Assembly: GCA_040437565.1 (NCBI GenBank)
Contig: JBDOQK010000048.1
Location: 186,001-249,990, forward strand
Direction of reading: 5' to 3'
Length of the DNA stretch: 63,990 bases
Source of the DNA: Albugo candida
Lineage: Eukaryota
The position numbers and the translations under genes are program-made. Below are positions 6,792 through 56,505 of the stretch, in pieces (the first letter of the stretch is position 1; each line of letters begins with the position of its first letter). The notes under the pieces were generated by a model. It saw nothing but the letters and a program-made list of their open reading frames with translations, was not told the DNA's origin and ran no database searches.

Positions 6792-7235
6792 TGTGGCAGT
6801 CGAGGGGATGACAGGCTAACTTCTGTTATGTAGGTGCTGAATGATCGCAAAGAACGATCGAACTTTCCTAATGAAAGCGCATGCTCGAACGGGTTACAAA
6901 TGAATCTCGTTACGGTTACGTGGGTTACGGATGGTCAGCTGTTTTCCCGAGGTAGGGATTCTGAGACGATCAGACTAGGATGTATNNNNNNNNNNNNNNN
7001 NNNNNNNNNNNNNNNNNNNNNNNNNNNNNNNNNNNNNNNNNNNNNNNNNNNNNNNNNNNNNNNNNNNNNNNNNNNNNNNNNNNNNAAAATGAAAGTGTAT
7101 AAAAGATCCAGTTTAATAGCGTCTGTGAGGACATGAAATTATACAACTTGACGGCGCTAAGGGCAATCAAGTTGATCACTACGAATCTAAGTGTGCATGC
7201 AGCGTCTTCTATGCGTGATAATGAATCGTGCGATG

Positions 7236-20755: not shown

Positions 20756-21056
20756 TGGCAAAGAGAAACAGCGGGCATAGCGCGCTGTTACCATATTATC
20801 GCAGAGAGTTTAGTATACGTTTTATACGCGGCAAATTGTCAAGAAAAGAGATGATGCAGTCTGTACACATGTTAGCAATGCTCTGTATCNNNNNNNNNNN
20901 NNNNNNNNNNNNNNNNNNNNNNNNNNNNNNNNNNNNNNNNNNNNNNNNNNNNNNNNNNNNNNNNNNNNNNNNNNNNNNNNNNNNNNNNNCAGACCTGAGA
21001 AGATCAGTCAGTATCAGACGCTTCTTTTAGCCAATCGTAAATCACCAACCACCAAT

Positions 21057-31184: not shown

Positions 31185-32677
31185 TTTTATTAATTGAAAG
31201 AATACGATTGGTCTTTAAGTATCCAATTAACCTACATCATTACATTGTTCATAGCGATTCAAATTGGTTAAAACATTTGGTTGCGTGGTTGTTAGTGTTT
31301 ATAGGGTCCCTGCTGGGTTCTCAGGTACTGATTTGTCGTAACCAATGCATTGTAGTTCCCCGTGCGAATTTTCATCTATGTTCTGACTAGCATGCGAATG
31401 AATGGTATTATAGTCAGTACAGTTAGTAAGTAGGAATTGACATCTTTCGTGAGTGTTAAAGCTTTTCTTTTTCGTTGTAACAAGTGACTACCCAAAGAGA
31501 GTAAATATCCAACGCATCTAGCACTTCCATACTATAAATCTCTGTCAGATGTGTCGAGACCGCCAGCAACCTGCCCCGGGTATGACGAATTTCAAACGAA
31601 CTGATATTTGGGGCAATGGTATTTCAGCGCTAGTCACCGTCATAGAAGAAATGGCTACTTCGCAAACGATCTATTTCACATGACACAATGCATTTGTTCG
31701 ACATCTATGTATATTATATTACTAAGTCAGATAGTAGCACAATAGAGCTGCCACTTTTGTGGTAGCGACTCTTTAAACAGACCAGCCGCGAACATGGAAT
31801 AAATCACTGCAAGAGGAATTGTCGGCGGGATTGTAATGGTTGAAGAATTTATTGTTACTTTTGCTACACACGCTTCTTGATGTGGACTTAAAACGTCTAC
31901 TACTAGTAATTTACTGTATCGATCGATTTATGGAATTATTCATATCGCACGTATAGACAATGCTCTCGTAAGTGCTATTTCAGGAATCTAATTTGGCTTA
32001 AAGAGCATTGGGGCATTATGAGCATATACTTCCCACCTTTTGGCGCATTCTGCGTTAGTTCTGAGCGCAACCTCGAAGTGATAAACGAGCATGATTAGTA
32101 CAGCTTCTGTGAGCTGCTTCATAACATTTTGTTTCACACAAATATGGGTAGCCAGCAACCGTACACATATGGGAGCACTAGATGTCGCGCACTTCGTGTT
32201 CGATTATCATTTCATCAGTTGGTATTAATCAGCGAATGCTTCCACGTAATCACTCCGCTTCAGCTTACAGGCAGGTTTAAATCAGACGATATAGACCTGT
32301 GTTTGCATCATATCCTATTTGTAGAGAAATATCTCTACAGGTAAGGATTACCAACTGAGAGTACCATTAGTACGGGTCAGCGTACAGTCTATTACTGCAA
32401 TGATACCACACGCACAATCCTTTCCGAAGGGTAATTCTTATAGTAGCCCCCAACACCAGCATTCACTCATCGTACGTAAACGCTTTCTAGCTCAACTTGC
32501 CTAAAACTCATGCTTGCGGCTTGATGCATACTCGAGTCATGAAAAGCTCTCGCCCAAGTCCTCTTCGTATAGGCTCTGTCCTCTTCATGCTGAGACGCTT
32601 CAACTCGCGTCTATTCATACAATTCCAATCAGTCCGCTGACAACTCTCTGCGTACATGCGGGCAAAGTCGCTACAAC

Positions 32678-35600
32678 ATGGGCGACAACGATACTCTCAC
32701 ACAATTGAGACATGTTCAACGCGCACATATTTCTGCTAAAATCTCCTGCAATCCATTTCCATCAGTTCGAACGCACACCGCAGAAAAACAACGCGCGCAT
32801 TCACAAAGCACATTCGAGACGCGCCGTTCTCAGCGCAATAAACTCGCTATGTCATCCCCACTCTGCAATTCTGTTGTCGACACTTTGAGCGCAAGAATCC
32901 AACATCCACGCATATCGACACTTTGTGCATGCATTTCGATGCAGCAGGAAGAAATACAAACGTTGAGACAGAATTTGAGAGAAACGCGATTCGAGCTGCT
33001 ACGAAGCGAAATAGAATATCAGGAGTTGTTTCAAGAGCGTAAGCTGATTCAAATCGAGACAGACGCACTCAATACCGACGTACAACGCTTAACGATGGAG
33101 CTCGGTCAGCGAGGTGAGCAAGTACGAAAGCTGTTAGAAAAGAGGAACCAATATAAAGCAAAGTATAAGCATTCGGAGCGGGAGAAACAAGTATCTGAGC
33201 GAAAAATACACGAAATTCGCGCTGAAAGCGATCAATTACTACAGCAAGTACAAAAAGCTCGTGACGCGCGAGACCGCATGCAACATCTTTACATTCAGCT
33301 TAAAGACGCTGCAACTTCTTCACTATCCGCACAGTTGTCATCGCAAGTCGCAATTGAGCCCGTATCGGAAATCTCTCTTGTAGAGTGGAAACGAATTTAT
33401 CGGCGTCGTATCCATAAAGTTGCGGTGAGCACACTTTTGGGCATGCGGACGCTCCGGAAGTCTTTGTTTTGTATTCGGGCTCCTGCATTCGAGCTTCGAG
33501 AAGAAATGCTGAGGTTCACAGCTGCGTTACACGGTCCATTAATGAGTCTTGTGAAGCACTCACAAAAGGCTGAGAGTGCGTGTGCCAAAGCTTTATTGTT
33601 GGACAGTTCTTTACAAAGCTCACAACTCGCACGCTGTCAATTACAGGAAGAATTGTGGAGGTCACGGAACAACGTCTCACTTGTGTGCCAATTGTATTAT
33701 CCGTATGAAAATACAGAGGAAAACCCAGGCAAGAAAGTCGTTTTTCTGGAGGAAAACACGCACGACGGTCTTTTGGATGTGTCGATCGATGAGGCAAATC
33801 GACAAGTGGTCCTACGGGATCACAGTCGATCTCAAAAGCGGGAAAAATGCTCGACACTGGAAATTCGGCTTGACTGTATCGAGTCGGATGGACCGGGTAT
33901 TCAAGACGTTGAGAGTTTCTGTCCCTTGTTGGAAAGTGTGTTGGATGGGTACAACGGCCTTTGTCTCTATATTGACACACTCGCATCCACCGGATCATTT
34001 GAAGACGGTCTGAAAGTCTTAAATGCACTTTACGATAAAAGTGCACGCAAGTCTTCTCAGGGCGCTTTGCGTCATTTTAAGCTGAAAATGAGCTTTGCTG
34101 CTGTTTACGGTGACAATGTTTGCGACTTGTTGACGTCGAATCTGAGCGTTCTTCCAGTGACAACTGAGTACGAACCGCTGCTTACTTTTGTGGAGAGAGA
34201 TTTCGATGAGGCTAGTGATCTGATGATGAAAGGAGTGGCCAGGCTGAACACTGAAAGTGGACACAGTATGCGATCAGCGCATCGAGTCCTTACAGTGAAC
34301 GTGATATTTGAAAAAGGGTCGACTGCGTACACCACAAAACTTCAAATTCTGCAATCGACTGGAAAGCAGATTCCTGAAATTGGAGCTCTTCTACAGCTTT
34401 TAGAAGATGCTCGTACCAGCGAGGAGATCGAGACACATCAAAATCGGGCTCTCCTTTCACTTCTGAAAGATACCACGCGATCGAACGATAAGCTCCTTTT
34501 GGTGTTGAACGTACCCGCTACCTCCACTCAGCGCTCGCTTCCAATCGATTCGGACACATTCCGCATGTTTCAGGCAATACAGGGTATTCGTGTAATAAAT
34601 CGACAGCAGATACCGCCCATATTCGAAGCTCATCCACCAGGGGCACCACATACGCTCCCCAAATCCGAAAGCTTAAACGACACACACGATGAAAAACCCG
34701 GTAGAATTCGACCACAATCTCCACAATATTCCGTGTATGCAAAACAGCTAACAGAGCGCCTGAACGTCAAAGCCTCAGCTCAAATGAAACCCTTATCGAA
34801 AGAAAATAGCGAGACGAAAATGAGTGAAATTCCGAGAATTCCGCCCAAATTGCTGCTTGATTCCTCAATAAAGAGAATTGCATCGCGAGCACCGTCTCCA
34901 CTCAACAAACATGCAGACAGATGTCTTTCCGCTTCCAAAATTCGCGTTCCTCAGGGAGCAGCAGCTCGAATGGATGCTGTCAAGGTGATAGAGCCAAAAC
35001 AAAGGGTACAAGAAAGATTGGGCGGCGTCTTATTAAGCACAAAACAGGCACAAGCGTATGAGAAGCAAATTGTCGAAAAAAACAAACTTTTGGCTTCTGA
35101 TTCCTTTCGCACACTTTCCAGTCGTCCAACTGTTCCACAAATCGGAATTAATCGAATTCGAACACCGACATCTAACGCGAAAAACGCTNNNNNNNNNNNN
35201 NNNNNNNNNNNNNNNNNNNNNNNNNNNNNNNNNNNNNNNNNNNNNNNNNNNNNNNNNNNNNNNNNNNNNNNNNNNNNNNNNNNNNNNNAACCCGGTAGAA
35301 TTCGACCACAATCTCCACAATATTCCGTGTATGCAAAACAGCTAACAGAGCGCCTGAACGTCAAAGCCTCAGCTCAAATGAAACCCTTATCGAAAGAAAA
35401 TAGCGAGACGAAAATGAGTGAAATTCCGAGAATTCCGCCCAAATTGCTGCTTGATTCCTCAATAAAGAGAATTGCATCGCGAGCACCGTCTCCACTCAAC
35501 AAACATGCAGACAGATGTCTTTCCGCTTCCAAAATTCGCGTTCCTCAGGGAGCAGCAGCTCGAATGGATGCTGTCAAGGTGATAGAGCCAAAACAAAGGG

Positions 35601-36866: not shown

Positions 36867-38672
36867 CTATCCAACCAATACGAGTCCAAAAGTCAATCCG
36901 AACGCAAGCATCCAAATAGGAGACAAATCGGTCGCTCCATTGCGCTTGGATCTCGTCGTTGGGACGCTCAACACGTCAGTGGGATATTGAGATGCATCAA
37001 AAGAGCGTAGAGCCGGTGTAATCGTTTCTTCTTCACTCAATGCCGCTTTTGCTTTGGCCAAAATTGGGAATGTAAAGTTGCCAGTGTCACACTTTTCTTC
37101 GGATTTGCACGGCTGACATATCTGCACGTAACCGTTCCGTTTGCACCCATTACCGCTTCCGCACTGCTTCACGTTATAATAACACGGCGGATTTCTCGCA
37201 GTGAGCTCGTCGAGCGTCGGCAGAGGTCGGAAATGCGCAATCACATTCGATGGAATTTGCNNNNNNNNNNNNNNNNNNNNNNNNNNNNNNNNNNNNNNNN
37301 NNNNNNNNNNNNNNNNNNNNNNNNNNNNNNNNNNNNNNNNNNNNNNNNNNNNNNNNNNNNACTTTTCTTCGGATTTGCACGGCTGACATATCTGCACGTA
37401 ACCGTTCCGTTTGCACCCATTACCGCTTCCGCACTGCTTCACGTTATAATAACACGGCGGATTTCTCGCAGTGAGCTCGTCGAGCGTCGGCAGAGGTCGG
37501 AAATGCGCAATCACATTCGATGGAATTTGCAGTGAGCTTTTCGATCGATAGATTTCCGTATACGTCTCAATGACTTTTTGGACACGTTTCGCGTTTGCGG
37601 CTTCACTGGTGGCATTCCTCCAAAACGATAAACCTTGTTCGAACGTGCCGGTTTTATTATCCGCAGCGAATTCGACGTGACTTTCGCTTGCATTACACCA
37701 GTCACTAAAGGTTGTAAACGGTTTTCCCGTACGTTCGTTGAGAATACTTGTGATTCCAACAACATCATCGATCGGCACCCAGCCTAGAATCGAGTATGCA
37801 AACGTACAATCTACGCCATTTGGTGCGACTCCAAGCTCACAAAGTCCAGGTCGACTCGCTTTGCGACAATCTTCTGTTTTCCCGTTCTGATTTGATTTTG
37901 TTGAACAGCTGTTTGGGAAGGAAAACATGAATGCACCAGGATACGGAGCACGCGTGTCGGTGATCGTATTCGCACCAACAAATGGACCCAGATTCGGCTG
38001 CCCATTCTCGCCACTGAATTGGTAACATTCGACGGGAAGTTTGCCCGAGTCGTCTAATGGCTCACACTGACCGTCTTTCATGGGAACCAAAGGACCATAC
38101 TCGTTCACTTTCCACGACTCTGCGAATTGGGAAATGGTCTCGTTAGTTTGCACCATTTCAATGCTGTAAAAGACGAGATTTTTCGCTCCATATTTGCGCT
38201 CACACCGTTTCGACGGAGGACGCTGATGTGAATTGATACATTCAGCCTGCACGAATCGCAAGGCCCCTTCGATGGAAAACGTGTTGACAGTGTCGAGTCC
38301 GGCTTGATACGCTTTGGCCACGTCGTTCACATTCAGTCGGGTCGATGAAACGAAGCGATCATTCATCAAAACGGGATGCTCATTCTCCACACGACTGTGA
38401 ACAAATCGCACTTTCTTCATCTGATACGCATCTCCGGTCGGTTTGACCACATTTCCATCAAGCGGATCGGGAAAGTAGCCGTTTATATCGAGCGCACTTG
38501 ACTTGATCGAAGAGTTTGGTAGCTTCTCACTCAGTGTTCCAGAATACAAGCTGCTTGTGGATGAGATCATCGTATTCAGAATTTGACCAGGAACGCAATC
38601 CAAGCAGCAGATAAGTACCATCGATACGCTTTTAAGCATTCGCTTCGTATTGATTTGAGCTGAAGACGCCAT
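36867..38672 (-). CDS. Cys-rich secreted, probably GPI- or membrane-anchored protein of unknown function (about 511 aa collapsed); paralog of 1..1129
   Basis: N-terminal hydrophobic stretch, many Cys, and a C-terminal small-residue site plus hydrophobic tail (NGATDLSPIWMLAFGLTFGLVLVG). Colinear identity blocks with the 1..1129 protein. Confidence 0.85.
   Translation of the reverse strand: MASSAQINTKRMLKSVSMVLICCLDCVPGQILNTMISSTSSLYSGTLSEKLPNSSIKSSALDINGYFPDPLDGNVVKPTGDAYQMKKVRFVHSRVENEHPVLMNDRFVSSTRLNVNDVAKAYQAGLDTVNTFSIEGALRFVQAECINSHQRPPSKRCERKYGAKNLVFYSIEMVQTNETISQFAESWKVNEYGPLVPMKDGQCEPLDDSGKLPVECYQFSGENGQPNLGPFVGANTITDTRAPYPGAFMFSFPNSCSTKSNQNGKTEDCRKASRPGLCELGVAPNGVDCTFAYSILGWVPIDDVVGITSILNERTGKPFTTFSDWCNASESHVEFAADNKTGTFEQGLSFWRNATSEAANAKRVQKVIETYTEIYRSKSSLQIPSNVIAHFRPLPTLDELTARNPPCYYNVKQCGSGNGCKRNGYVQICQPCKSEEKXXXXXXXXXXXXXXXXXXXXXXXXXXXXXXXXXXQIPSNVIAHFRPLPTLDELTARNPPCYYNVKQCGSGNGCKRNGYVQICQPCKSEEKCDTGNFTFPILAKAKAALSEEETITPALRSFDASQYPTDVLSVPTTRSKRNGATDLSPIWMLAFGLTFGLVLVG
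37091..37530. repeat. 170-bp duplicate flanking gap 37261-37360
   Basis: 37091-37260 matches 37361-37530. Confidence 0.9.
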
Positions 38673-38875
38673 ATTTTATAATGAGCATCCTCAACATGAA
38701 AGTCCACGGCCACATTCTATAGAATCCCAAAGAGTGGGACTTTGACACAAAATTGAATCTTTAAATCGCTGCGTCATACTCCCGGCATCCAATCCCAAGC
38801 TCTACACATTTATATCTGGCTATCTTGGACCGGATATTCCCACTCTTCCGGTTGTGACACGTGCAAAGTCCTGTG

Positions 38876-41800
38876 TTACCTGACAACGCGAGTATTGAAA
38901 ACCCATTCGCGCATATTTTTGCTTCGATAGTGAGGATACGCTTCCAGAATCTTCTCATAGTTATCGAGCGTGAGACAGAAAACACTGCAAGTATGAAGGG
39001 CGATACATGTAGCTGTTCTCGGAGTTCCAAAGATGAGAGAACGCTCTCCAAAGTACCCAAATGATCCGATGACGCGTTGAGCTTCCGTCGTTTTCACCTG
39101 CACTTGTCTTGCTGTGTTTATTTCGCCCGAGTTCTTTGCTGGAGGCGCATTGACAGCTGGACTGATCTCTGTCGTTTTTTCAGCAGCATTTCGACTGCTT
39201 TCCTCACGCTGTTGCGTCATGGCCACCATATCGATTGTGGGTCCCTGAATCCAAGCTTTTGACTTGGAAAGACGTGCTTGATCCTGTAGTGTCTTGGCTA
39301 TTGAGTAAAAGTTGGGGGCTGCAAGAATGGATTTCTCGAGCATTTTGGTCGCTTTCTGATGATCGCTGTCTTCGGCCAGCGCTGCTGTCAACTCTGGCGT
39401 GACTTTGACGATATTCCCTTGCTTCTCAGCTTCTTGTGCTTCGCGTGACGCAGCTGGCACAGTTGACACTCGGACAATTCTTACGGATACCAGACCGCTC
39501 TCAATGATGTACAGACTTCTGCCCAAGTCTCCGTGCTGAATGATGACGTCATTGGTGACGTAGATCTCGTTCCGCATCGCTGTGACGATGGATTCAGCAA
39601 AAGAATACTCACAAGTGTCAAAAAGTCGAACATTTCGAATGAGATTCCCGTGGACATAGAGAGCAATTCGTCGCTTCACTGAAGCTGTAAGTCCTCGCAG
39701 CATCTCTTCCTCATTCATCCCTTTCGTTTCATGCCAAAGAAGCGAGAAATACGCCTGCATTTGCTTCCAGCTTTGACTTGGAAATTCATGGAAAATCATG
39801 TAATGATTCGCCTGCGCTACCCGCTGCTCAAATTGAGCTCTGCGGCCTACTTCCATTTCAAATATCTTGAAATAAACACCCGAAAGCATACTGAAGACCC
39901 CGATCGACAGGAAAATCACGACAAGTGTCACGATATTTTCAAAATAGTTCATGGGTAAAATGTCGCCGTAGCAAACGGTTGTGATGGCTCCGATGCTGAA
40001 ATGCACCGAGCGCGAATATTTAGATAAGATTGGAAAGTCGTACAGCTCGTCCAGGTTCTTGAGACCGTGAAATGACAGCATTCCCGGGGCCGTAAGCCAG
40101 GACGCCATGTTCTGATGCTTATAGTAACTCCAGTAAGATGAGCTGTAAAACACACACGCAATCCAATGCGTTCCAATGATGAAATCAAGCATCAATTGCC
40201 CGAGATAAAAGTACGTCGGTGATAATCTGGCCACTTTACGTTCATACAGCACATAGTATTTGATTTTCTCGTGCAATTGATGCACTTCCAAGCCACGTAA
40301 CACCTTTGTAACACGGAATGTCGAAAGAGAGTACAGGAAATGGTCAATGAAAAATGAAGACGTCAGATGTACACGGAACAGGAAGCACGCAAAAGTCGGG
40401 ACCAATTCGAATGGAAGGATTGCAATCAAATCGCGGACATAAGACCCGTGTTCGTAATAATTCCGAGTGATTTCTGTGCGATCTGTCACGCGTTCACCTT
40501 CACGCAAAAACGTGAAATAATTGCGACAGAGAATGAAATTCATAACACTGACAACGTCGATCACTGCGAACTCGATCGCAAACCACATTAGAAATTGAGC
40601 TCGGTGATCACTACTGTCCAAACGATCTTGAAGAAAACTCGCACGAAAAGGGATCGCGAATATGCAATAATAGTCAACAAGCAGCATGACGATGTCCCAT
40701 CCGTGTCGAAATTTAGGTGCATTCAGAAACGAGGCAAATGTTCGGGTCGGTGGAACAGCCCAAATCAAGTACGGATTCACTCCCGAGTCCTTGCTGGACC
40801 CTAATAAGCCTGCGGCCTGTGGGATTCGAGAGGTATGAAGGGATTGTCTGCGTCCCTGTGAAAGCGCTGGTATGACCGATGCAGCACTCTTCCTAGACAT
40901 TGTGCGCTGGATTGTGGATTTGTAAGACTCAATTTGACGCTTGGAGGCGTATTCATTCGCACACGACCATTTGTTCTCAATCTGCTTTACTATTCGTGAG
41001 AGATAGACTTCGATTTGGTCCATGTTGAGCAAATTCTGCTTCCGTGCTTGTTGAACGTCTCCAAACGAATGTCTGCGTTTCAAACGAGGCTTTGACTCAA
41101 CTTCCACAATATCAAAGTCACATCGAGCTTTGTTATCGAAACGATACTGTCCCTCGTGATGATTATTCAGTTGTTTACTGATATGATGCCACAACGTATC
41201 AATTAATCGAAGAGCCCAAACTCGCTTCAGGTGGCGACGCCATCGAACGACTACATCACTAGAAAATCGCACTTTCACCTTCATTTTTCGACACTTTCGC
41301 GTACCACCGGATGCTTGCAGTCTACGGGTCAGATTCGAATTTTGCTTTATTCCACTAACTATCGACTTTAACGTTTTCGGTGCATCCAAAGCCGGGCCCT
41401 GCATCAGCCGTCTTTCAGATAATGGAAGCGAGGGCGATTCCCTAGTGGACGCTTGACTTTTTTCATAAAGGTCTTTGGACGAGCAAACAAGCCCAAGAAT
41501 CTCTGCTGCTTCGACTTTAAATGTGTCGGGCATCTGATGCACTTTGTGAGTACTGAGACTTACTTTCTTTTGTAGCTTCTCACGCTTTGAAGTAGATCTC
41601 CCGCCATCATTTTGTGATCCCTTCTCTGGGTAAGAGCTTGCCAATTTACTCACAAACACATCGATGGATGAGGAATGAGCTTTGATGCTTCTACCGCTTC
41701 GTGGCTCAATATCAGCCCTTGTCGATTTCACAGACGTCGGAGTATCCGCAGTTTGAGGCTGAATGGAGACGTAATTTTGCTGCTCTAAAGAATTCAATTT

Positions 41801-44800
41801 GTCATGTGTACCTTCAAAGCCACAATACGTAAGGGAATCGAGTGCTTGCAAATTGATTCCTGTGCCTCCATCAAAGAACCAATCGTCCGATACGGATACG
41901 GTGGATCCTTCAGCTCTGGAGGCGAAATTCTTCATAATGTTCAAATATGACAGAGCTACTCCATGATACTTTTTCTTCAGCCTTGTAACGATTTTATTCT
42001 CCAGCTGCATGCGCTGAGCTGGAGGCCATAAACGCTTCCAATTATTCTGATTCAGAACTAATAACTGCGAACTATGAGCAGCTCGCAGGGATGCTAGACG
42101 AACGGAGTTAGGCAGGAAGAAAGAGAACTCGCCAAACATATCCCCGGGACTGAGTGCCGCAAAAATCAAGCGAGATCTTGGCGCAAAAATCTCACCACAG
42201 CCATCCTTCAATATGTATACATTTCTTCCTGCACAAGTCGCGTCCACAATTACATCACCTTGGAGGTAAATTTCGAGTGTCAAAACTGAGGCGACGGCCT
42301 CGACTTGGGCATTGGTGAGCATATCAAACTCTGGTAAGGCTCGAACGAAATCCCCATACAGCTCTTCAAAGAGCTGAATATGCAGCGATGGAGGCAGTAA
42401 GTCGAAAACTTCATGTGGAATTAATTGAAGATAGCATTTCGACTTGTACTCGAGACTGGCCATCGCATGTCGACGCAACGCTGAGGGAAGGTTTCGACGT
42501 TTGGCATATTGCTCAAAACTCTCGACACGCTCATGCTGCTCTTTCGAAGCTTTGTCCAGAGTTATGATCAAAGTGCTAATTCGACCGATAACTTGCCCGA
42601 TAAAGATCCATCCCAAAATGCATATGAAAATAGAGAACACCGTTTCTAAAAAATTTCGAGCCACAATGTCACCAAAGCAATCGACTGTGAACTATTCAGA
42701 GCAGACGAATAAGAGAGAGCTTGTGGAGAAGTCAAGACATCACGTACCGTTGACAAGCACCAATACATTGCTCGTAGATAATGTATCGAAATCGAATCTG
42801 GGTATTCCAAAAGAATCGAATCCACATTCACCCAGCTCTGGTCCGCGATACCGTGTTTCAGCTGAAGTACACCGAGCATGTAATATAAACTTGCGACGTA
42901 ATGAGCCGTGGATAGAAAAATGATGAAAAATTTGAATAAATCAAAAAGACTTGACGCCATTGTGCTTCCATGCATATACTCCTCCTGAATCTTTTTTTGG
43001 ACGTTGTTGACAAAGTCGCTGAGTTGGGGACTTCGCAATAATCTCGGGAGACGAGCTACAGTCGCCAAATAATAGTTGTTTCCGACATAATAGATCGGCA
43101 GCATACTCCAGCAGTCGAGTGTAAACCATCCTTTTTTCCTGTATCGCTGTCGTATCAAAACGGGATCGAGAATTTTCTCTCGATATTCAGTATAGCCAAA
43201 GCGTTTGAGCTTCCAGTAAATGTCCAGGTACAAACAGAAATCGCATGAATAATCGATAATTGTGAGTTTGAGCATTGTAGAAGATGATGGTTGTGGCAAG
43301 AATGCGAGTCGGAACACAATTTGATAAAAGTTGTACACGACAATCGCTGTAATAACGCGATGCCAATAGACCACAAAAGTGCTCTTTGGGTCGAAAATAA
43401 CTGACCTGCTGGTGCCCACATTCGTCCCTACATTCGAAGGCCGAAGCTTTGGCGTCACATTTCGTAAAATATGGTTCAGACTCGTTTGTATCCAGGCTGT
43501 AAACGATAAAGATATGACTCGTGACTTGGACGCTAAAAACGAGCTTCGAGCATTTTGACTCATTCCGCATTGCCTTGTGATTTTCGGATACTTTATCAAA
43601 TTCTGCCCAATCTTTTTCAAAATCTCTTTTTCTTCCGCCACGTACCCATTGATTGCATAGTAGACGTCAGCAAAAACACTTGGGTATTTTTGTACAAGGT
43701 TTAGAAAATCTTGTCGCTGGATAACTGTAATCTGAACTCCAGATACTGCTCGCGCGCTGAATTGATATAAATGTCTCTGTGACAAGATACTCTCTTCACC
43801 GAAACAATCTCCACGTTTCAGAAAAGTGATGGGAACAGAGAAGCGATCAAAATCCGCTCTTTGATCGAAACTTGCGCGGGGAGTTGCAAAAATATGTCGA
43901 TTCGACTTGTGGCCAATTTTTAAAGCTTTAGGGCCTTTGGTGAAATGGGTGCTTGCCAATGTCACCGCATTACGTTTGTGTCCGCTTGTTGTGTGATTGT
44001 TCTCACTTTTGCGTTGGAAATAGCCTCGGATACCGCTAGCTGGATATCGCGTGCTCGATGAAAGAGCATGAGATGACAATGCGCCCAAATTTGCCAAAAG
44101 TTCCACTTCACCGGTCTGAACGATAAACATGGCTGACGCCATATGCTCTGCACGCATGATAACAACATTTCGAAGAAAAATCTGTGTCTTTGCTACTTGA
44201 GCTAATTCTTGGAGCACAATCCCCTCCATTCCATACAACGTGTCACAAGCGAGTGATCGGAAGGAATGAGAATGTTTTAAATCATCTGCGTAGATGGAAG
44301 CACAAACACGTTTTCTCTGTGAAGGCGGAAAATGTTCTTCCATCTCGTCTTCATCAAGCGCGCTACCATTAAGCTTCCACATTGTCGCATAATACTGGCG
44401 GATAATCGCTTTGGTAGAGCTAGATACTTGCGTCATTGTTAAAAGTGTAAGGTTCTGTCGCTCCAAGCGTTCGCGGCGAACAGCTTCGAGAATGTTGACT
44501 TGAGACAAAGCGCTTGTGATAATAGAGCCCATCAAATAACATACGATGGCGCCCATGAAAATCCAAATGCTTCCAACAATTGTTTCCTCGGTCGAAAAAG
44601 ACACGATATCGCCAAAGCCGACAGTGGATATCAATACTATGCTCCAGTAATACGAGCGCGTGAATGGAGAATCAATTTTATATGTGCTCTGATCATACAG
44701 ATACCACGAACAGTTTCCATGTACGCTTGCATCTCCAAGACAACTATACGCGGATGAGACTTGGACATTCTCATCGCGATGGTAGCTGAACTTGTCAGAA

Positions 44801-47587
44801 GCCATGTAGAATAGACTTCCCGCTAACATTGTCATGGCGAGACAGAAGATCGTCGCGTTGATCAGAAATTGAAGTGCGGTCGAAATCCCGGAATCCAACA
44901 TGAGCTTCCGAATCTTATATTTAAGATGACGGACCCGGATCAGCTTCAGCAAACGGACAAATCGAAGGGAATTCACAACATTCACCGGCAATTTTTCTTT
45001 GTCTAGAACGTCCCAAATCAGCGGTAGCGGAATGTTAGCCGCCACATCGGCCAAGTAGCCTTCCGTCTCAAGATAGTGCTCGAAAATGTTTCTGTGCTCG
45101 ATAATCAACCCAGCCTCGCTAGAAATCTGTGTAAAGTCGTGAATACTGTGAACCAATATATTGTTATTTTGTCTCGTAGGCGCATGTGTCGACCGAACAA
45201 AACAACGAGAGCGAAAGTAGAGATCTAAAAGGAAGAAACCTTCGACCGCAACGTTCCAATAAAATTCAAATACCCTGACGTAATGTACAAACGCGCTTCG
45301 TAATGATGATCTTGATTCATTCAATAAGCCAAATTCTCGTTCAAATGCAATGTAATAAGGCACCTGTAGTACTATATAGCACATAAGAACGCATTCCGCC
45401 ACAAGCCAATTCTTTTGAAACTTGGAATGAGGAAGTCTCCATGTAGCTATACCACTCAAAGCGGATCCAAAATCCTTGAACATTTTACCCTGTCTTCCAC
45501 GCATTGCGTTAGATTCTTTCAGCGGTACTCCGGCTGAAGCTTTTCTGACTGCAGATGCTTTGTCATTTCGCAACATTCCGGATCGTTCTGGTTCAATAGA
45601 GTTTGGAACTGCATTTTTGTCTTGCAGTGCGGTGGCATAAGATACGCGTGGGAAATGCTCATAGAGAGTTTGTTTGAATGCAAGGCGAGGCAAGAGCCAA
45701 ACTTCACAAAAAGAGTCAGCCACCAGATAATGAGACGATTTTGACTTTTGAGCCAGTGCATGCTCTGCATACGTGCTGCCTGCAATCAAACGGCCACAAT
45801 CATCCATATTTTCATCTTGCACACGAATTTCACCCGACGACACTATGAGCATTTCTTCCGGTTCGCCATACTTGAGAATCGACTGGTTCGGTACAAAGCA
45901 GTCCCATCGTAAGCCTGCCAAAACAGAGCGCAAAAAAGCTCCATGACGGTTTTTGAAAAGAGTTATCTATAAGAATAATCATCACATTTGTATACAGATC
46001 CAAAAACAAGCGTGTGATACCTTTTCCAAATGCTTATATTTTACGAAATTCGCGCACCTCATTCGATATTGCTCCGGAAGATTCGATAATATAAGCTCTT
46101 CCTCGACTCCGTGACGTGTTCGCTGCATGTAACGAAAATACGTATTAAGATCAGCTGTCAATTGATTTGAGATTTTCCGCGACGACGTAAACTGTTGAGA
46201 ACAATCTAAGCCGAAAAATTTCAGGAATCAACGCAATTCAAACCTTCATCATTTGTGCGAGTCGAGTTGTGATGTTGATATGCATATTGGCGTCAATGTA
46301 GCTAAAGTGGAAAGAGCATGCTGTCCCGATTGCAGTTGCCCATAAACCCGCTACAAACTGTATAAATATTCGGTAGTTTGTTTCCAGCATTGTCGTTGGA
46401 ATCAGGTCTCCTTGTCCTAACGTTGTGACTGTCTTGCATCCCCAATACATGGATCGAAGATACTTTCGCCAAAAAGATCCTTTTTCCAGATTATCTCGCA
46501 GCACCCAGGACCCCGGGTACGGGTCATTAGAGCACCAGGTAAAGTTCAGACCACATTCAATATGTGCGATGAGCATGTAACCTGATCCAGCCAAATGTGC
46601 AAGATATATTCCAAGCACAGTGAGATAGACCAACATTGCGGTGGTGCTGAAAGACAATAGCTGAACAAGTGTGGAAGTCCCGCTTCTACTCAGGATGACA
46701 CGATTAAACCTTCTAGGGAGGTGGTATGCTGCTTGAATGAATCGAATCAAACCCATGATATGCATCAGATTGAGATCTGAAAGAAACACGGCTTCCCAAG
46801 GAAGTATATCGGCCAATATGACAAAAAGGGCCAATTTTGATTGCGTACTTGACTCTCTCTCTACAAAAGTCGACTGCTGTAAGGAATTGGATCCATAAAC
46901 AAAGCTGTGTTGGTTGATAGACGTAATCGCATCTTTACTTTCGCCTGTTGAGTATTCACTTGATGCACTGCTAGTGGTATCAAATAGCTCACTTGAAATC
47001 GGATGCAATTTGAACCTTGCCAGCAAGCCATGTACTTTTTTAAAAAAGAATTTGATCTCTCTGCGCCACGCAATCGCTCGAATCACACAACCCATTGTGT
47101 CGGACAATAAGAATACTTTGTTCGCAAAAGTCAAAGATGCTGTTGTTTCTTCAAACAAAGGATCGAAAAAAAAACCAACTCGGAATGGAACTACTACAAG
47201 TATGTAGATTGTATCGACGAAACTCCATAACGCGAAGAATGGCTCCTTCCTTCGTTTTATGTACATATGAGCTTTGTTTTCGAATTTGATGAAAATCGAT
47301 TTCGAAATTTGCAAAAGCGGTGCGCTTATACTTGGACATGAATAATTGAAGATAGTTCTCACCCTGTGCGCACCAAGAGAGCGATCTTCAGAGTGTTGAT
47401 GTCCATTTCGAGCTTCTACCGGTGCAATGATCCCAGCATCCGAGGATCTATGCTTTATTCGAGCTTTCGACATCATCCAACTACCTTTTCCTCCAACTAA
47501 TGTAGGCAGCGCTGGTGTCACCTGTTTTTTTCGATTTAGGTAAGATTGATCCAATATTGACGAAGGCGGACCCTTTCGTGCAGACAT
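38876..47587 (-). CDS. Four-repeat cyclic-nucleotide-binding-domain cation channel (4 x [6TM + C-linker + CNBD]), 2849 aa
   Basis: Exons 47587-46244, 46191-46021, 45966-42748 and 42691-38876 are joined by phase-0 GT-AG introns of 52, 54 and 56 nt, fusing three ORF-track entries. Four pore loops (TTLGQGD, STVGFGD, TVDCFGD, TTVCYGD), four C-linkers and four CNBDs. Confidence 0.9.
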
Positions 47588-48462
47588 TATATTGCGTTAG
47601 AAAAACGAGCCAAATCCTGATGTATTTATAGGATCCCCTACAGCCGAAGGTAGCATTTTCAAGTTTGAATACAATGTGACGCCTTCATGCGTTCAATCGT
47701 CCGGACAAACCAAGATGACGACAAAACAAATTACGTTTCTATTTTGCAGCTAGTAAAACGTAGCAATTTCTCAGCTATTGGTGTCAATCTTTGATGCACA
47801 GAGAACTTCGGTGTCAGAACTTTATCACGTCCGTTTAATGGTAACACAGGATGCTCCATCACTCTTTGCATGCGCTGATGACGGCATTAAAAACGCAGCA
47901 AATGCCTCTGCAAATAATCTATCAAGATGTGCCCTTCTTTGGGCGGTATACGAGTAGTGCTCCGTCGCAGTAGCGTTAGGCATACTTTGGTACGGGGTGA
48001 GCTCGCTACAAGTCGTCTTATTAAAATGCCAGGTCTTGTAAGGTAAGCATTCGCTGGTCAACAATTCATGACTTAAATGCGATCTCACGTGCGGGATCAG
48101 GTATGATGGAGAGTACCCAAGTGAGCAGCGAGGGTCGATGACAGGCAGCATTATCACGCATGCTGCGACAGTATTACGCTATCTTCCATGCAGAGCCCTT
48201 TTCGATGACCTAGGATGCCCAGGATGAAGAGCAAGAGTGTGTATGAATTCCGGTCGGTAGGAGAATAGAGACCAATTGAGGAACATTGACTAGCGCTTCA
48301 CACAAGATAAGATAAAGCATCTGGTGGCTCCAACAGATCGTCATGAAGAGAATCACAAGCAATTTTTGACTTGCTGAATCAAAATCGGCCGATGAATATT
48401 TATTGATTTTCGAAAACCTTTGCAAAATACAGAATATATATATATAATTAAGAGCGGGGGAG

Positions 48463-48933
48463 TCATATTTCGACTCTGTTGATCAAGACTTCATAATCGT
48501 CGACAGTGGTGGGTGATTCAATTTCCGCTTTCTGCTGAATCTCTTCCTCATACGTCTCAGAACCCATTGATTTCAGCTTATTCAATGCGACATGATTCTC
48601 AATCGCGTCATACCACAAGTCTTGGTTAGTGTCGGTCCCACAGTCGACGTACAAGTCGCGTCCATTCTCCAGCCTTATGCATAGACCGAAATTCCGTCCG
48701 CCCCACGTAATGACAGAAACAACCGCGGAAGATTTGATGGCCTGACTTTCGGGTTTGTTGTCATGTCTCCATGACAAAACGCCCTGATCCAATATCATGT
48801 AACGTTTTTTCCAGGTCGTAAAGATCTCACCGCGTTTTCGAAGGTATCCGCTCAATTTCGGCGCTTTTTCCTCAAGACGCTTTATTTTTGCCGAAAATGT
48901 TTCAGATCGTAGCCGCAAAACTGTAGCATTCAT
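48463..48933 (-). CDS. Small PH-domain protein (ORF extends to 49089; start uncertain)
   Basis: LSGYLRKRGEIFTTWKKRYMIL...GRDLYVDCGTDTNQDLWYDAI. Confidence 0.85.
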   Translation of the reverse strand: MNATVLRLRSETFSAKIKRLEEKAPKLSGYLRKRGEIFTTWKKRYMILDQGVLSWRHDNKPESQAIKSSAVVSVITWGGRNFGLCIRLENGRDLYVDCGTDTNQDLWYDAIENHVALNKLKSMGSETYEEEIQQKAEIESPTTVDDYEVLINRVEI

Positions 48934-51537
48934 ATGTAATCGATTACTTGGTCGCTTCTGATTTTGTGGGAATTGAGCTATGATACAAGCAGATGTTACA
49001 TACAAATTGGATGAGTTGTCACGCAGGGATGTTACAACGCATATGTCCCTTGTGATTGGACGATATACGACGAGTTTTGGTGAGTTCATTGAAGTCGATG
49101 CATCGTTATGACTCTACGTGCCCACCTCCTTGACGTGGCAGACTACAAACAGTTGATGGTACACCTCATCTTTTGGGTCATGCAATTGTCAATGAAGGAT
49201 TTTCCTGCCTTACTGGGAATTGACACGTCTGCATTTTGATACTCTAATTCGTATCCATTTGACTCCGTCTATACATGTAGAGAAAGATGCAGAGTGATTA
49301 TTTTACTGCCTAAGGAAGAATGCATAACATAAGTGCGTTGAATTCTGAATCAAGACGTGATGATGTTGATCGGAAGGAATATCACTAAGAAGAGACGAGT
49401 CAGGGAAGAAGCTTCAATATATGCTGTAATTGCTCAAGCTGTGCGGGTCATAACACTGCCGCTGTATGTGCTAAACACACATAAGTCATCGATGCAGCTA
49501 CACCTATAGGTTCCAATCTAATCTGAACGGATAGTCTACACTTCCATTTCGTCTAGCTGAAGCGAGTCATTACCGGCACCGATGCATATCAAAGATCCTC
49601 ATTTATAAGCCTGCTTAGTGGCGATATGCACAAGATGTATTTTCACATAGACGTTCTAGACTGCAAAAAGTCACTCATCGAAACTTTCTACATTTCTCAG
49701 GATATGTGCTCACACGACGTTTGACGATACAAAAATGAGTGAAGCCGCGTGGCAAATTCATATCTTTATACAGGGATTTGGTAACTATTAAGTGAACTTC
49801 AGCTATCTTTTTGGCTCAGAACGAGGGAGTTTTCGGACACGTCGTATGAGAACACATCGGACAAAGCGTGAGCACAAAACAATTCACGAAGGAAAACGCT
49901 CTCGTCAAAATAAATTCGTCCAGCCGCACTCTGATCAAATCTTGGCAACTTCTAGTTTCCACACTCTGTTTATGAGTGCTCATAGTACCGCACACGTAGA
50001 AGCTCAAATAAGCAGGAGTAAATGTCTCCAACAACCTGACATCACACAATGGATCACAGAGGACGGAGGAATATGACTCTCCCTTTAATGCATCAAATAC
50101 GGGAGAAAAAAAGCAGGTAGCAAAGAATCAAAAGTGTACAAAGCTGACCAGTAGGAGTAAGCATCTTATCCGGAATCTCGAACGCCACTATGGATATGAT
50201 CAATCCGGGGAATTGGCTTTCCGGTCACAGCGACACACCATCGGGTTGCTTCTGTCGATGTTACTTCGACGCATAACCGGCGTAGAAAACTTCTCATTGA
50301 ACGAGTTACCCGGCTTTTAAACTTCGTACGTATTGAATCTGCATTTAGTAGTGAGATCCGAGCCGGTATGGCTGTCTTACCAGGTGACGAACGTGAGCGA
50401 AACGCATTCGAGAGTCACATTCGTAAAGTACGCCCTGTTTCGGGTGGTGATAGTAGAGCGCTGACGCTGCTCAAAGTGAACTTTGCAGTTAATGTGGAGA
50501 CATATCCAAGCATCCGACATGTATCGATGCAGAGCACCAACTATTGGAAACTGCGCGCTTCACTAGAGTTATGCGTTTCATGCGAAATGTGACCAACCCC
50601 ATTTCTGCTCCCACCATATCAAAGCAACATGCCGATGAAAATCGGCAAAATGTCGACATGGTGGCATCACATTGATACCAATTAGTGGAATGCTCCAAAG
50701 TCGAGTGTAACGCATCAATTAATTTGTATCTCATACAAATTGTAACTTGGTATGTTTCTCAGCTTATAGGTGTCATATGTCGCTATGAATACACCTCAGA
50801 ACGAATTGATTGAGCATGAGATGCCGTCGTTGAACAGGCCATGATTTTTGCCACCAATTATTTCCTAAACAACGTTCTCACACGAAGAGAAAAATGAGAA
50901 AAGCACCATAGAGATGATCTTCAAGGAATGAATTGATCTAATCACCATTCAGCAACTAACTAAATGTGATCACAAGGTATCTGACCGACCCATCCTGGTG
51001 AAAGGATCGTGGCTACTAAATAGGCGACACATTTGTTCACAACTTGGTAACACAAGAACGACTTTTACAGATTGTCCTTGACTCCTCAGCCTTCAAAATC
51101 TCGCCACAGGATGCCAAGCTGAGCTTCTAGAGGAGAGTCGATATGAATGGAGTCCTCAGCACCATAAAAACTGGGTGCTAAATCTTGTCGAGTGGATCGC
51201 CCTGCTTGTCACCTCTAGAAGAAGTCTCATGGGTGAGAGCGATATAATCAATCACCAGCGGAATGCTCGTTTTCTGTCCAGAACTATGTCGGCCTAATGA
51301 TCGAACTTTCACCGTTATATATGTGAAATCAATCTGCTGAATACTGCGCTATTTCAAAGTCGAGAAGAGGTGCACGCAAAATTCAATGAAATAGTAAAAT
51401 GTGGTGATTGAGCTCTACTTAATCAACGTCAAGCTGATGTGCCGTAACTGCTTCGATAAGTGGTCGAGTAAAGAGCCGGCCCCCGAACTTGGGTCAAAAT
51501 TCCTGAAAGCGGACTATGATGGCGACACAAATCAAGC

Positions 51538-53379: not shown

Positions 53380-53713
53380 TTGACCGAATCACGGAGTTGC
53401 AGACGACCCTCTTTCAGATTTGAGATCATCTTGTACAAAGTTGATGATAGTACCGACTTAGATATCTCGCACATTATGTGTAGTCGTATCCTTAAANNNN
53501 NNNNNNNNNNNNNNNNNNNNNNNNNNNNNNNNNNNNNNNNNNNNNNNNNNNNNNNNNNNNNNNNNNNNNNNNNNNNNNNNNNNNNNNNNNNNNNNNTTGA
53601 CCGAATCACGGAGTTGCAGACGACCCTCTTTCAGATTTGAGATCATCTTGTACAAAGTTGATGATAGTACCGACTTAGATATCTCGCACATTATGTGTAG
53701 TCGTATCCTTAAA
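53380..53713. repeat. 117-bp duplicate flanking gap 53497-53596
   Basis: 53380-53496 matches 53597-53713. Confidence 0.9.
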
Positions 53714-54316: not shown

Positions 54317-54548
54317 CCAAAAACTACATTTGTACAATTACAGATGTCTTGACATCAGCTGGGTCAATGATGATTACCTTGTNNNNNNNNNNNNNNNNNN
54401 NNNNNNNNNNNNNNNNNNNNNNNNNNNNNNNNNNNNNNNNNNNNNNNNNNNNNNNNNNNNNNNNNNNNNNNNNNNNNNNNNNCCAAAAACTACATTTGTA
54501 CAATTACAGATGTCTTGACATCAGCTGGGTCAATGATGATTACCTTGT
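54317..54548. repeat. 66-bp duplicate flanking gap 54383-54482
   Basis: 54317-54382 matches 54483-54548. Confidence 0.9.
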
Positions 54549-56505
54549 AACCATCATATCAGCATACTTGGCAAGATGCAAAACGTGAGGATGGAAGTGA
54601 GCTGGATACTAGTAGAAACTAAGCTACAATGGATAGCTTGACCATAGCTGAATGCTGAATAGCAAAGCATGCATCCAGATATTCTCTACCTGGATAGGAG
54701 ATCCCATCTCAAGAATTCGTAATCTACGCTCGTGATCAAGCCTATTCGAGCATTTTACGGAACTTTAGGAATCGCATACTCATTGGTATGACCCAGGGCG
54801 GTGTTTTCACCACTTTTGATCATCATCGACAGAGCATTGCACCACGACCCGATTAGATGCTTGTAGTATACTACTTTCGAGACGCTGGACCAACCTCAAG
54901 TGGTCAATCTGAAACGAGATCATGTCATTACTAGAGCTTTAATTCGAACGACCAAAAATTCCGTCGCATTCAGACGTACAAAAGCCTCCTTCAAACAAGA
55001 GACACTGACTTTAATAAGTTATTTGATACCCCCGTTCATTCTTCTGTTGTGAGTCATATAGGAGTACAGCCTTCGTCGATCTGCTCATCTTATGACTGGC
55101 ATTTACTTTTCTCTCTCACATCGATCCTTTCATTCACCTTTGAAGCAGCATAAACACTTGAGTCAGCAGCATTTCCCGAGATTATCTCTTCACGTACTTT
55201 ATTGCCATAGCCCTTCATATTGTCCATGTTTGTCAACCAGTGTATGAGGAGGAAGAAACGTATCAATTATCCTTAGACGGATCTGACACAATAATGATTA
55301 ACGTGCGAGTAGTATGATTTCGGAACGAATGAGGTCAGCCGTCTTTACACAGGTTTCACTTTTCTGCAGCGAAAAGCTTGAAAAAAGGATGCCGCTTTTT
55401 TGCGCGCAGAAAGCATTTCATTCTATCTGAACGCTCAAATGCGTAATACACAATCTATACTTCCAGCAGCACTAAATGGTAGCAGACAAGATCTTTTCCT
55501 AGGCTACTGTTGTTATCTATCTTGATCGCGTGTAGTATTTCTTAGCTACAGCTATGACAAAGGATGGGTTTTGTGGTTATCGCTGGATCATTGGCGCACA
55601 ACGCTGCGCTGCCGTGCACGTAGCTTTTAGCGACCTAGTCGCTGTGTCGAAGTAATAACTTATGGAAAGTGTTTTAGACTCTGCATTATCTACCTCGACA
55701 ATGCCATGTTCCTTCACGTAAAATCTTCAGCAAGCTAGATTCTGATTCCGTCGTGAATTGCATTTGATTCTATCTTTGTCTTTAACTTTTCGAAAGCAAT
55801 CTCCTCAAATACATTGAAAATATGTAAAGACACGTTATGTGCAATACTTCTCCATTTGAACTGATGATGCCAACCAATTCAGCAAAATTGACAGCTGCCA
55901 TTCGGCTCCATCACAGCTTTCAAGTAGAATCAAACAATTATTAAATGCCTGACATGAGGATTTCTTGATTTCTGGCGACAATGCAATGTGGAAGTGCTTT
56001 GGTTTCGTCCCAACTTGATAACGGTGACAGCAGTGCGTTCCCAACTGTATGTAAATCGGACTAATGAACGGCAACCCGATCATACAATGTATGGTGCAGG
56101 GATTCACCGAAATGAAGCGAATTCAGGAAGCGCTTCTCCGGGCTGCGATGATAATGGACGGCATGTTCAGTAGAAATTTAATGTCAATCAGGAGAGGCCG
56201 GCGATAAAATAAGGGTGAACGACGAGTTATGAGCGCGAAGGTCTAAATATGTAAATATGGTGTTGGATGCACCACATGAAGACGAGCGCACTTAGACGGC
56301 TCAACGGTGTCACAAGAATCGACTGCCGNNNNNNNNNNNNNNNNNNNNNNNNNNNNNNNNNNNNNNNNNNNNNNNNNNNNNNNNNNNNNNNNNNNNNNNN
56401 NNNNNNNNNNNNNNNNNNNNNNNNNNNNAAGAGTTTTGCGGACTAAGGTAGTCTTATAAGTCCTATAAAGCATTTCATCATCCGAAGGAGTTTATAGACG
56501 AACGA

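Follow-up and report, generated by a model that had tools for sequence, protein, structure and literature searches.

A four-unit, single-chain channel gene with cyclic nucleotide-binding domains in Albugo candida, and its relatives among protists

Gene model, splicing and domain content

The window analysed here, a 63,990-nt stretch of Albugo candida contig JBDOQK010000048.1 (positions 186,001-249,990 of the forward strand), holds on its minus strand a gene for a channel with four cyclic nucleotide-binding domains (CNBDs); coordinates throughout are positions in the window (Table 1). Three long open reading frames (ORFs) and a hidden exon, the latter contained in a small ORF between the first two long ones, were joined by script into a coding sequence of 8,550 nt, i.e. 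2,849 codons plus stop, which is free of internal stops. The four exons measure 1344, 171, 3219 and 3816 nt (stop included in the last), and all three introns are in phase 0 because every exon length is divisible by three. The ATG at 47587 is preceded by an in-frame TAA 9 nt upstream, and the protein of Albugo laibachii has the same start. Chance origin of the open frames is excluded: at the base composition of the window, the probabilities of frames of 452, 1106 and 1271 codons are about 4e-12, 1e-28 and 8e-33, and that of the 370-codon linker between repeats 3 and 4, for which no Pfam family was found, is about 5e-10. The locus is one protein-coding gene from which three short introns are removed, encoding a 2,849-aa chain with four non-identical channel units. 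No stop codon lies between CNBD2 and repeat 3, nor between CNBD3 and repeat 4; one ORF runs from CNBD1 through repeat 2 into the beginning of repeat 3, and another from pore 3 through CNBD3 and the linker to repeat 4.

This structure had been proposed in an earlier note on the same DNA, and the 2,849-aa chain given there, from three ORFs plus a hidden exon with phase-0 introns, was reproduced to the residue. The hidden exon had been taken for the C-linker of repeat 1; indeed, in the alignment of the repeats the 171-nt exon 2 falls in the columns of the other C-linkers, and it is 91% identical to the corresponding part of the A. laibachii protein. Likewise, the junction ...YWCLST/FTVDCFGD... 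confirms that intron 3 splits pore 3. The note's reading of an oomycete-type genome agrees with the closest relative of the channel, the 2,821-aa protein of A. laibachii Nc14 annotated as 'Voltage-gated Ion Channel (VIC) Superfamily, putative', with which the window protein shares 2,319 of 2,812 aligned residues (82%). This protein is continuous across all three junctions, with identical flanking residues on either side.

Contigs of four public sequencing runs (X1-X4) were compared with positions 38800-47700. The intervals 42692-42747, 45967-46020 and 46192-46243 are precisely missing from contigs of run X1, and their ends read CT..AC on the plus strand and hence GT..AG on the strand of the gene. 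Introns 1 and 2 are bridged together by a contig of 1,933 nt (record 3; shorter side 171 letters), and intron 3 by a contig of 11,345 nt (record 1; side 255) that covers 38800-44364. Joints 1 and 2 alone were found in run X2, which belongs to the same study, with short sides of 27 and 20 letters; in run X4 a single contig of 72 kb contains the entire region unspliced, like genomic DNA. Such intron-less copies with exact GT..AG limits are best explained as complementary DNA (cDNA). Together the X1 contigs cover 38800-47031 apart from 44551-44594. The 11,345-nt contig also extends about 5.8 kb past the 3' end of the channel gene (below 38800); X1 contigs therefore merge neighbouring genes, which fits very short intergenic spacers. 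Separate transcripts, as might be read from the X1 contig depths (116 against about 6), were considered and rejected, since these depths are whole-contig means and record 1 reaches 5.8 kb into neighbouring genes.

The protein was scanned piece by piece against Pfam. The cNMP_binding family (PF00027, cut-off 27.5 bits) was found above its cut-off in all four units, at 36.1, 42.1, 39.2 and 45.2 bits for CNBD1 to CNBD4, in accordance with the four units of six transmembrane segments, pore, C-linker and CNBD described in the note. Ion_trans exceeds its cut-off in repeats 2 and 3 (38.7 and 39.2 bits) and Ion_trans_2 in repeat 4 (26.5 bits); the membrane part of repeat 1 stays under the cut-off for both (17.7 and 19.0 bits). 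Used as a query, repeat 4 recovers the other three repeats of the chain (4e-13, 6e-13 and 3e-11 for repeats 1, 2 and 3), and it finds four repeats in each of 15 long homologues. Sequence searches of the PDB return channels of the CNBD family only, namely CNGA3, SthK, CNGA1, LliK, hERG, HCN and plant KAT/SKOR/GORK (best 5e-25), in alignments that span the chain from S1 as far as the CNBD. Repeat 4 as modelled by AlphaFold2 (mean predicted local distance difference test, pLDDT, 75.7; predicted template modelling score, pTM, 0.59; insert at residues 452-553 disordered) can be superposed on CNGA1 and CNGA3 subunits over their whole length (Foldseek E 1.5e-20; template modelling score by target 0.69-0.77); a search of the ESM Atlas with this repeat gave generic CNBD-channel clusters only. 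The model of exon 1 (mean pLDDT 61.8) has its helices ordered as S1-S6 plus a pore helix, a disordered insert between S2 and S3, and AKT1, GORK and HCN1 as best Foldseek matches (E about 1e-5, score about 0.4), which lends moderate support to repeat 1 as a complete unit. The membership of the CNBD-channel superfamily suggested by these matches agrees with the build of the units: each has six transmembrane segments and a pore loop, for repeat 1 under the Pfam threshold and in a model of moderate confidence, and in each a C-linker and a CNBD follow S6.

Table 1. Features of the window, from the channel gene outward (positions in the 63,990-nt stretch).
Feature	Position	Strand	Remarks
ORF, 452 codons	46238-47596	minus	
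ORF, 81 codons	45982-46227	minus	contains hidden exon
ORF, 1106 codons	42646-45966	minus	
ORF, 1271 codons	38876-42691	minus	
Exon 1	46244-47587	minus	448 codons; N-terminus, repeat 1 S1-S6 and pore 1
Pore 1 motif TTLGQGD	46406-46426	minus	exon 1
Intron 1	46192-46243	minus	52 nt, GT..AG, phase 0
Exon 2	46021-46191	minus	171 nt, 57 codons; C-linker of repeat 1
Intron 2	45967-46020	minus	54 nt, GT..AG, phase 0
Exon 3	42748-45966	minus	1073 codons; CNBD1, repeat 2, repeat 3 S1-S5 and pore helix
CNBD1	45664-45897	minus	exon 3
Repeat 2 transmembrane part	44482-45426	minus	exon 3
Repeat 2 S4	44905-44964	minus	exon 3; Arg/Lys evenly spaced
Pore 2 motif STVGFGD	44608-44628	minus	exon 3
CNBD2	43612-44229	minus	exon 3; insert of ~85 aa
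Intron 3	42692-42747	minus	56 nt, GT..AG, phase 0; within pore 3
Exon 4	38876-42691	minus	1271 codons and stop; pore 3 filter, S6, C-linker, CNBD3, linker, repeat 4
Pore 3 filter FTVDCFGD	42668-42691	minus	exon 4
CNBD3	42029-42268	minus	exon 4; phosphate-binding cassette 42089-42136
Linker of 370 aa	40772-41881	minus	exon 4, between repeats 3 and 4; no Pfam family
Repeat 4 transmembrane part	39866-40711	minus	exon 4
Pore 4 motif TTVCYGD	39962-39982	minus	exon 4
CNBD4	38879-39628	minus	exon 4; insert of ~110 aa; phosphate-binding cassette 39008-39052
Upstream neighbour ORF	48463-49113	minus	PH domain, E 5.7e-9
ORF, 602 aa	36867-38675	minus	no Pfam family; begins ~200 nt after channel stop
ORF, 1073 aa	32594-35815	plus	no Pfam family
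Delta-aminolevulinic acid dehydratase ORF	30195-31214	minus	Pfam ALAD, E 1.3e-97
Runs of 100 N	6986-7085, 8909-9008, 10492-10591, 14606-14705, 17650-17749, 20246-20345, 20890-20989, 35189-35288, 37261-37360, 53497-53596, 54383-54482, 56329-56428		

Conservation of the units and relatives of the channel

The four units were compared in an alignment of 13 members (the window protein, A. laibachii, Lagenidium, Pythium brassicae, five Phytophthora species and four others). The filter of repeat 1, TLGQGD, is present in all 13; that of repeat 2 reads G[FY]GD in 13/13 and TVG[FY]GD in 12/13; FTVDCFGD in repeat 3 is found in 11 members, and TVCYGD in repeat 4 in 12. In the window protein itself the filters are TLGQGD, TVGFGD, TVDCFGD and TVCYGD for repeats 1 to 4, with the canonical K+ signature in pore 2 only. 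The S4 segment of repeat 2 carries Arg or Lys at every third position five to seven times, compared with about three such charges in each of the other three S4 segments. The canonical phosphate-binding cassette (PBC) of a CNBD has the form Gly-Glu ... Arg-[Thr/Ser]-Ala. CNBD4 reads FGERSL.FGTPR[NT]AT, with the PBC Arg in 11 of the 13 members; CNBD3 has FGE in 10/13 and the Arg in at least 10/13 (alignment read by eye); CNBD2 also has FGE in 10/13, with the Arg at the aligned place in none; and CNBD1 reads YAE or HAE, with Gly-Glu and the Arg in none. To judge from this alignment, a canonical PBC is retained only in CNBD4 and, less cleanly, in CNBD3. The two Albugo proteins agree at 79-97% of residues in the domain cores, against 54-82% in linkers and inserts, and at 90-93% in the C-terminal parts of CNBD3 and CNBD4. 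The repeats of the window protein share only 18-20% pairwise identity with one another.

A search for longer proteins gave 15 matches, all with Ion_trans and cNMP_binding. Named oomycetes account for 12 of them, with lengths of 2,503-2,901 aa: one protein comes from A. laibachii, two come from Lagenidium giganteum, one from Pythium brassicae and the rest from eight Phytophthora species. All 15 database matches longer than 2,226 aa have four repeats. A near-length search contributed fragmentary sequences of Globisporangium ultimum, Pythium oligandrum, Nothophytophthora, P. ramorum, P. cinnamomi and P. megakarya, as well as a 2,200-aa protein of the diatom Thalassiosira sp., and a search from protein P0035 added a 2,233-aa protein of the annelid Owenia fusiformis, a 2,045-aa protein named for the butterfly Vanessa cardui and a second P. 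infestans T30-4 protein (2,296 aa). In these word-limited searches no names from Hyaloperonospora, Peronospora, Bremia, Saprolegnia or Aphanomyces came up among the matches, which is not evidence of loss. An exhaustive HMMER search with repeat 4 yielded 6,923 proteins at E <=1e-3, 146 of them also at E <=1e-30, and among the best 150 matches many are 2,000-3,900 aa long with several matched stretches. The rarity implied by the earlier note was thus overstated: full-length orthologues are annotated in many oomycetes, and four-repeat relatives are common among eukaryotic sequences.

With a hidden Markov model (HMM) of the repeat built here, exactly four large repeats were counted in 75 of 176 proteins examined, and the 300 repeats of these 75 proteins were placed in a FastTree phylogeny together with 9 single-repeat rows. 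The repeats of 55 proteins group by position, for instance 55/55 third repeats (support 0.976) and 55 fourth repeats plus six fragments (0.939). These 55 include the family of the window protein (16), a second P. infestans family (9) and two EukProt proteins, and each of the window repeats R1-R4 falls in a clade of a single repeat number, which makes the window protein a member of this protist family. The first three repeats of the diatom protein P0190 lie within the R1, R2 and R3 clades of the family (supports 0.878, 0.412 and 0.965). Two further groups, one around an MMETSP transcript and one small, have repeats that cluster only within their own group. On sequence grounds, the window gene is orthologous to the annotated proteins of about 2,500-2,900 aa of Albugo, Lagenidium, Pythium and Phytophthora, and we read the tree as descent from an old gene that already had four repeats and was ancestral to at least the oomycete forms and that of a diatom. 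The second oomycete four-repeat family (P0172, P0173, P0070, P0060, P0059, P0076, P0050, P0043 and P0058, including a P. infestans T30-4 protein) has the pore motifs LLGYDD, AVGYGD, LVGSRE and TLFYGD, which are asymmetric too and unlike those of the window family.

Eight two-repeat matches within the family look like fragments of four-repeat proteins, because their repeats are consecutive pairs (R1R2, R2R3 or R3R4). Six other two-repeat proteins (P0139, P0133, P0116, P0163, P0168 and P0102; 1,241-1,959 aa) form a clade of their own and may be the true two-repeat tandem channels of PMC7576140. Two further proteins stand apart. P0177 of Vanessa cardui (2,045 aa) is a divergent four-repeat CNBD protein whose first repeat lies outside the animal-group clade, and it could be a real insect gene or contamination. 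P0092 (1,011 aa) has eight tandem matches to the CNBD end of the repeat HMM and no channel part.

Single-chain CNBD channels of four repeats are known as CNGK from animals and a choanoflagellate (PMC4749565, PMC6259924). The sea-urchin CNGK is opened through its third CNBD alone, its single functional one, whereas the zebrafish channel is gated by pH and insensitive to cyclic nucleotides, and the repeat pores carry the K+ signature GYG or GFG (PMC4749565). The window protein resembles CNGK of sea-urchin and fish sperm and of the choanoflagellate in having four repeats of six transmembrane segments, pore, C-linker and CNBD in one polypeptide, and in that not all of its CNBDs look functional, as in the sea urchin. 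It differs in the canonical signature, present in pore 2 only as against all CNGK pores; in falling outside the animal-type clade (a group assigned by taxon and architecture); in repeats far more diverged than those of an animal-type protein (18-20% against 29-34% identity); and in its 370-aa linker between repeats 3 and 4 and the large inserts in two CNBDs. By analogy it would work like a CNGK-type pseudo-tetramer, yet it departs from CNGK in pore signature and clade. The label "CNGK-like" of the earlier note accordingly holds for the architecture and not for the K+ signature, found in one pore of four, nor for the position in the tree.

Two-repeat tandem CNBD channels were reported 'for the first time' in oomycetes and dinoflagellates in 2020, the authors proposing tandem channels as oomycete-specific targets and cautioning against reading selectivity from sequence (PMC7576140). 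Superfamily, organisms and position-specialised repeats are the same there as here, the difference being the four repeats in one frame that the window gene has in place of two. The tetrameric channels CNG, HCN, KCNH, SthK and plant AKT/GORK are like each unit in sequence and predicted fold, but assemble from four separate subunits, which here are fused in fixed order. Likeness to the four-domain channels Nav, Cav and NALCN lies in 24 transmembrane segments in one chain and a fixed asymmetric filter of four different pore loops. Those channels have filters of the EEEE/DEKA type. No sequence kinship with them exists beyond the voltage-gated-like superfamily; they have no C-linker or CNBD, whereas all four window units carry CNBDs and have only CNBD channels as best PDB matches. 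Proteins of the window type are already in public databases under generic names. The literature within reach, which left out most subscription journals and supplements, describes no four-repeat CNBD channel in oomycetes or other stramenopiles, and three things appear to be undescribed: the occurrence of the four-repeat build in this lineage, the broad protist family whose repeats are orthologous by position, and the conserved asymmetric filter.

Proposed working and cellular setting

The explanation that we favour, and consider fairly probable as a whole, is that of one four-unit gene of a protist family separate from animal CNGK, with specialised units and a cation pore gated by CNBD4 and CNBD3. 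As in the homologous tetrameric channels CNG, HCN and KCNH, one central pore would be surrounded by the four units, which would form a pseudo-tetramer of fixed order. Cyclic AMP or cyclic GMP at CNBD4 and/or CNBD3 would open this cation pore through the C-linkers of these units, and CNBD1 and CNBD2 would have a structural or regulatory function. Because of the PBC cassettes, at most two sites (CNBD4 and perhaps CNBD3) would be expected to bind these nucleotides, a limited read-out that echoes, by analogy, the opening of sea-urchin CNGK through its third CNBD (PMC4749565). The four different filters argue against strict K+ selectivity, so that the asymmetric filter is probably not strictly K+-selective, and the charged S4 of repeat 2 leaves room for modulation by voltage.

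Several points weigh against this explanation. Ion selectivity, ligand, gating and cell stage we infer from sequence, and the inserts of CNBD2 and CNBD4 (about 85 and 110 aa) are modelled as disordered. Regarding the transcript, 44551-44594, 47032-47304 and 47476-47587 are uncovered among the X1 pieces listed, no single contig listed spans the whole coding sequence, and the RNA identity of X1 and X2 is a guess.

The proposed setting is spore or zoospore signalling; the earlier note had put forward a candidate channel for chemo- or electro-sensing in zoospores. Albugo makes zoospores. In P. infestans nearly all genes related to cyclic nucleotides, CNG-type channels as a class included, are mostly expressed in sporangia and zoospores (PMC5322657), the membrane proteome of P. 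parasitica zoospores contains cyclases and ten channels of the voltage-gated type (PMC12223298), and genes with PF00520 are depleted in downy mildews (PMC6264045). This context from other genes makes such a setting likely. The channel might instead be a general cation or K+ channel of hyphae with no part in zoospore signalling. About a quarter of the cation-channel genes of P. infestans are mostly expressed in hyphae (PMC5322657), and nothing here links the window gene to a life stage, the RNA nature of X1-X3 being a guess from an 'RNA?' label. The expression of the cyclic-nucleotide genes and the PF00520 depletion speak against a hyphal role indirectly, and the absence of a named match from Hyaloperonospora or Peronospora in the word-limited searches does so weakly, which leaves such a role possible though doubtful.

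It is also conceivable that the CNBDs bind no cyclic nucleotides and that gating is by voltage through the S4 of repeat 2, by pH or otherwise, as in KCNH or in zebrafish CNGK, the latter being pH-gated and insensitive to cyclic nucleotides (PMC4749565). This would be in keeping with a CNBD1 devoid of Gly-Glu and Arg and a CNBD2 devoid of Arg in 13/13 members, with the long inserts that break up CNBD2 and CNBD4, and with the regular Arg or Lys at every third position of that S4. CNBD4, however, keeps FGE...PR[NT]AT with the Arg in 11/13, CNBD3 has FGE in 10/13 and, by eye, the Arg in at least 10/13, and the two Albugo proteins share 90-93% of residues in the C-terminal parts of both domains; moreover, a single functional CNBD suffices in sea-urchin CNGK (PMC4749565). 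Gating without any cyclic nucleotide is thus rather unlikely, and a channel opened through CNBD4 and/or CNBD3 is preferred.

Origin of the four repeats and genomic neighbourhood

The origin of the four repeats was addressed by comparison with an animal group called CNGK-like by taxon, by length and architecture and by G-Y-G in the four pores of its Owenia protein. An IQ-TREE phylogeny (87 rows, LG+C20+F+G4, quick search) placed the repeats of the animal group, 16 of 16, in one clade with 100 in the Shimodaira-Hasegawa-like approximate likelihood ratio test (SH-aLRT), and the third repeats of the protist family, 12 of 12, in another (95). In the larger FastTree phylogeny 31 of the 32 repeats of the Owenia group form one exclusive clade (support 1.0). 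Constraining family R3 and animal R3 together cost 59.6 log-likelihood units (p 0.025 in the approximately unbiased, AU, test), and constraining all four same-numbered pairs cost 270 units (p-AU 2e-5; LG+F+G4, fast searches). Profile scores recovered a positional signal in 3 of 4 rows in a within-family control (window family against distant members); against the animal group they peaked on the diagonal in 1 of 4 rows, by a small margin. Taken repeat by repeat, the window repeats thus neither join the clade of the animal group, as defined above, nor pair with its repeats by number. The earlier note had suggested a possibly independent quadruplication, and both the exclusive clade of the animal repeats and the rejection of the same-numbered tree point the same way: the sequence comparison favours a protist four-repeat channel that quadrupled independently of the animal channel.

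A single ancient quadruplication shared with animal CNGK would place the four-repeat gene in an early eukaryote and would require that the CNGK repeats look separate through gene conversion or slower evolution. The architecture is the same, and pairwise identity among the repeats within the Owenia protein is 29-34%, against the 18-20% of the window protein. Identity between window and Owenia repeats is slightly higher on the diagonal (R1 22.4, R3 24.3 and R4 19.9%), with row-and-column maxima on 3 of the 4 diagonal cells; this hint of a positional correspondence was followed up and not upheld by the profile matrices, which show no diagonal signal. Caution is advised in that support is weak for the deep branches among the repeats (SH-aLRT 81-86, drawn open), the groups for the AU test were named after the tree had been seen, the four-pair trees came from fast searches, ancient gene conversion among CNGK repeats would mimic independence, and the identity of the animal group with CNGK depends on taxon, length and G-Y-G pores. 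The repeats of the animal group nevertheless still sort by position (R2 and R3 4/4), so that no recent homogenisation has taken place there, and together with their single clade and the heavily penalised positional tree this renders a shared quadruplication improbable. Finally, a model that fuses two or more separate genes, e.g. two of the two-repeat tandem channels, the form in which oomycete tandem CNBD channels were reported (PMC7576140), could draw on the lack of one listed contig across the whole gene, and it is hardly credible in view of the absence of stops from CNBD2 to repeat 3 and from CNBD3 to repeat 4, X1 contigs that bridge all three introns and cover 38800-47031 except 44551-44594, twelve named oomycete proteins annotated at 2,503-2,901 aa, and eight two-repeat matches within the family that are consecutive repeat pairs, as fragments would be.

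According to the literature searched, pseudo-tetrameric CNBD channels occur only in animals and choanoflagellates, and for oomycetes two-repeat forms alone are on record. An independent four-repeat family, if real, would therefore represent a second, separately evolved fusion of four ligand-gated subunits, and the window gene would add a second and much more diverged lineage of fused CNBD channels, with functional claims that we infer from sequence. Its subunits would have diverged enough to fix an asymmetric pore, providing a natural experiment on asymmetry of the Nav/Cav kind and on the number of ligand sites that a tetrameric channel needs. For oomycete biology, the channel is a candidate for connecting the cyclic-nucleotide machinery induced in spores to membrane potential, and is of a protein type held to be absent from plant hosts. 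It is tempting to speculate further on an ancient family of single-chain CNBD channels with 24 transmembrane segments in oomycetes, diatoms and other protists, independent of CNGK, which has a Nav/Cav-like fixed asymmetric filter (GQG / GFG / DCFG / CYG), is gated by cyclic nucleotides, lacks strict K+ selectivity and may let Ca2+ or Na+ through, is read out through one or two CNBDs, steers the behaviour of zoospores or gametes, and is absent from plant and animal hosts; taken jointly, as one claim, this picture is tentative and doubtful in its entirety.

The genes around the channel are listed in Table 1. The window also contains twelve runs of exactly 100 N, which may be scaffold gaps or masking, and two of them lie inside long ORFs beside the channel gene.

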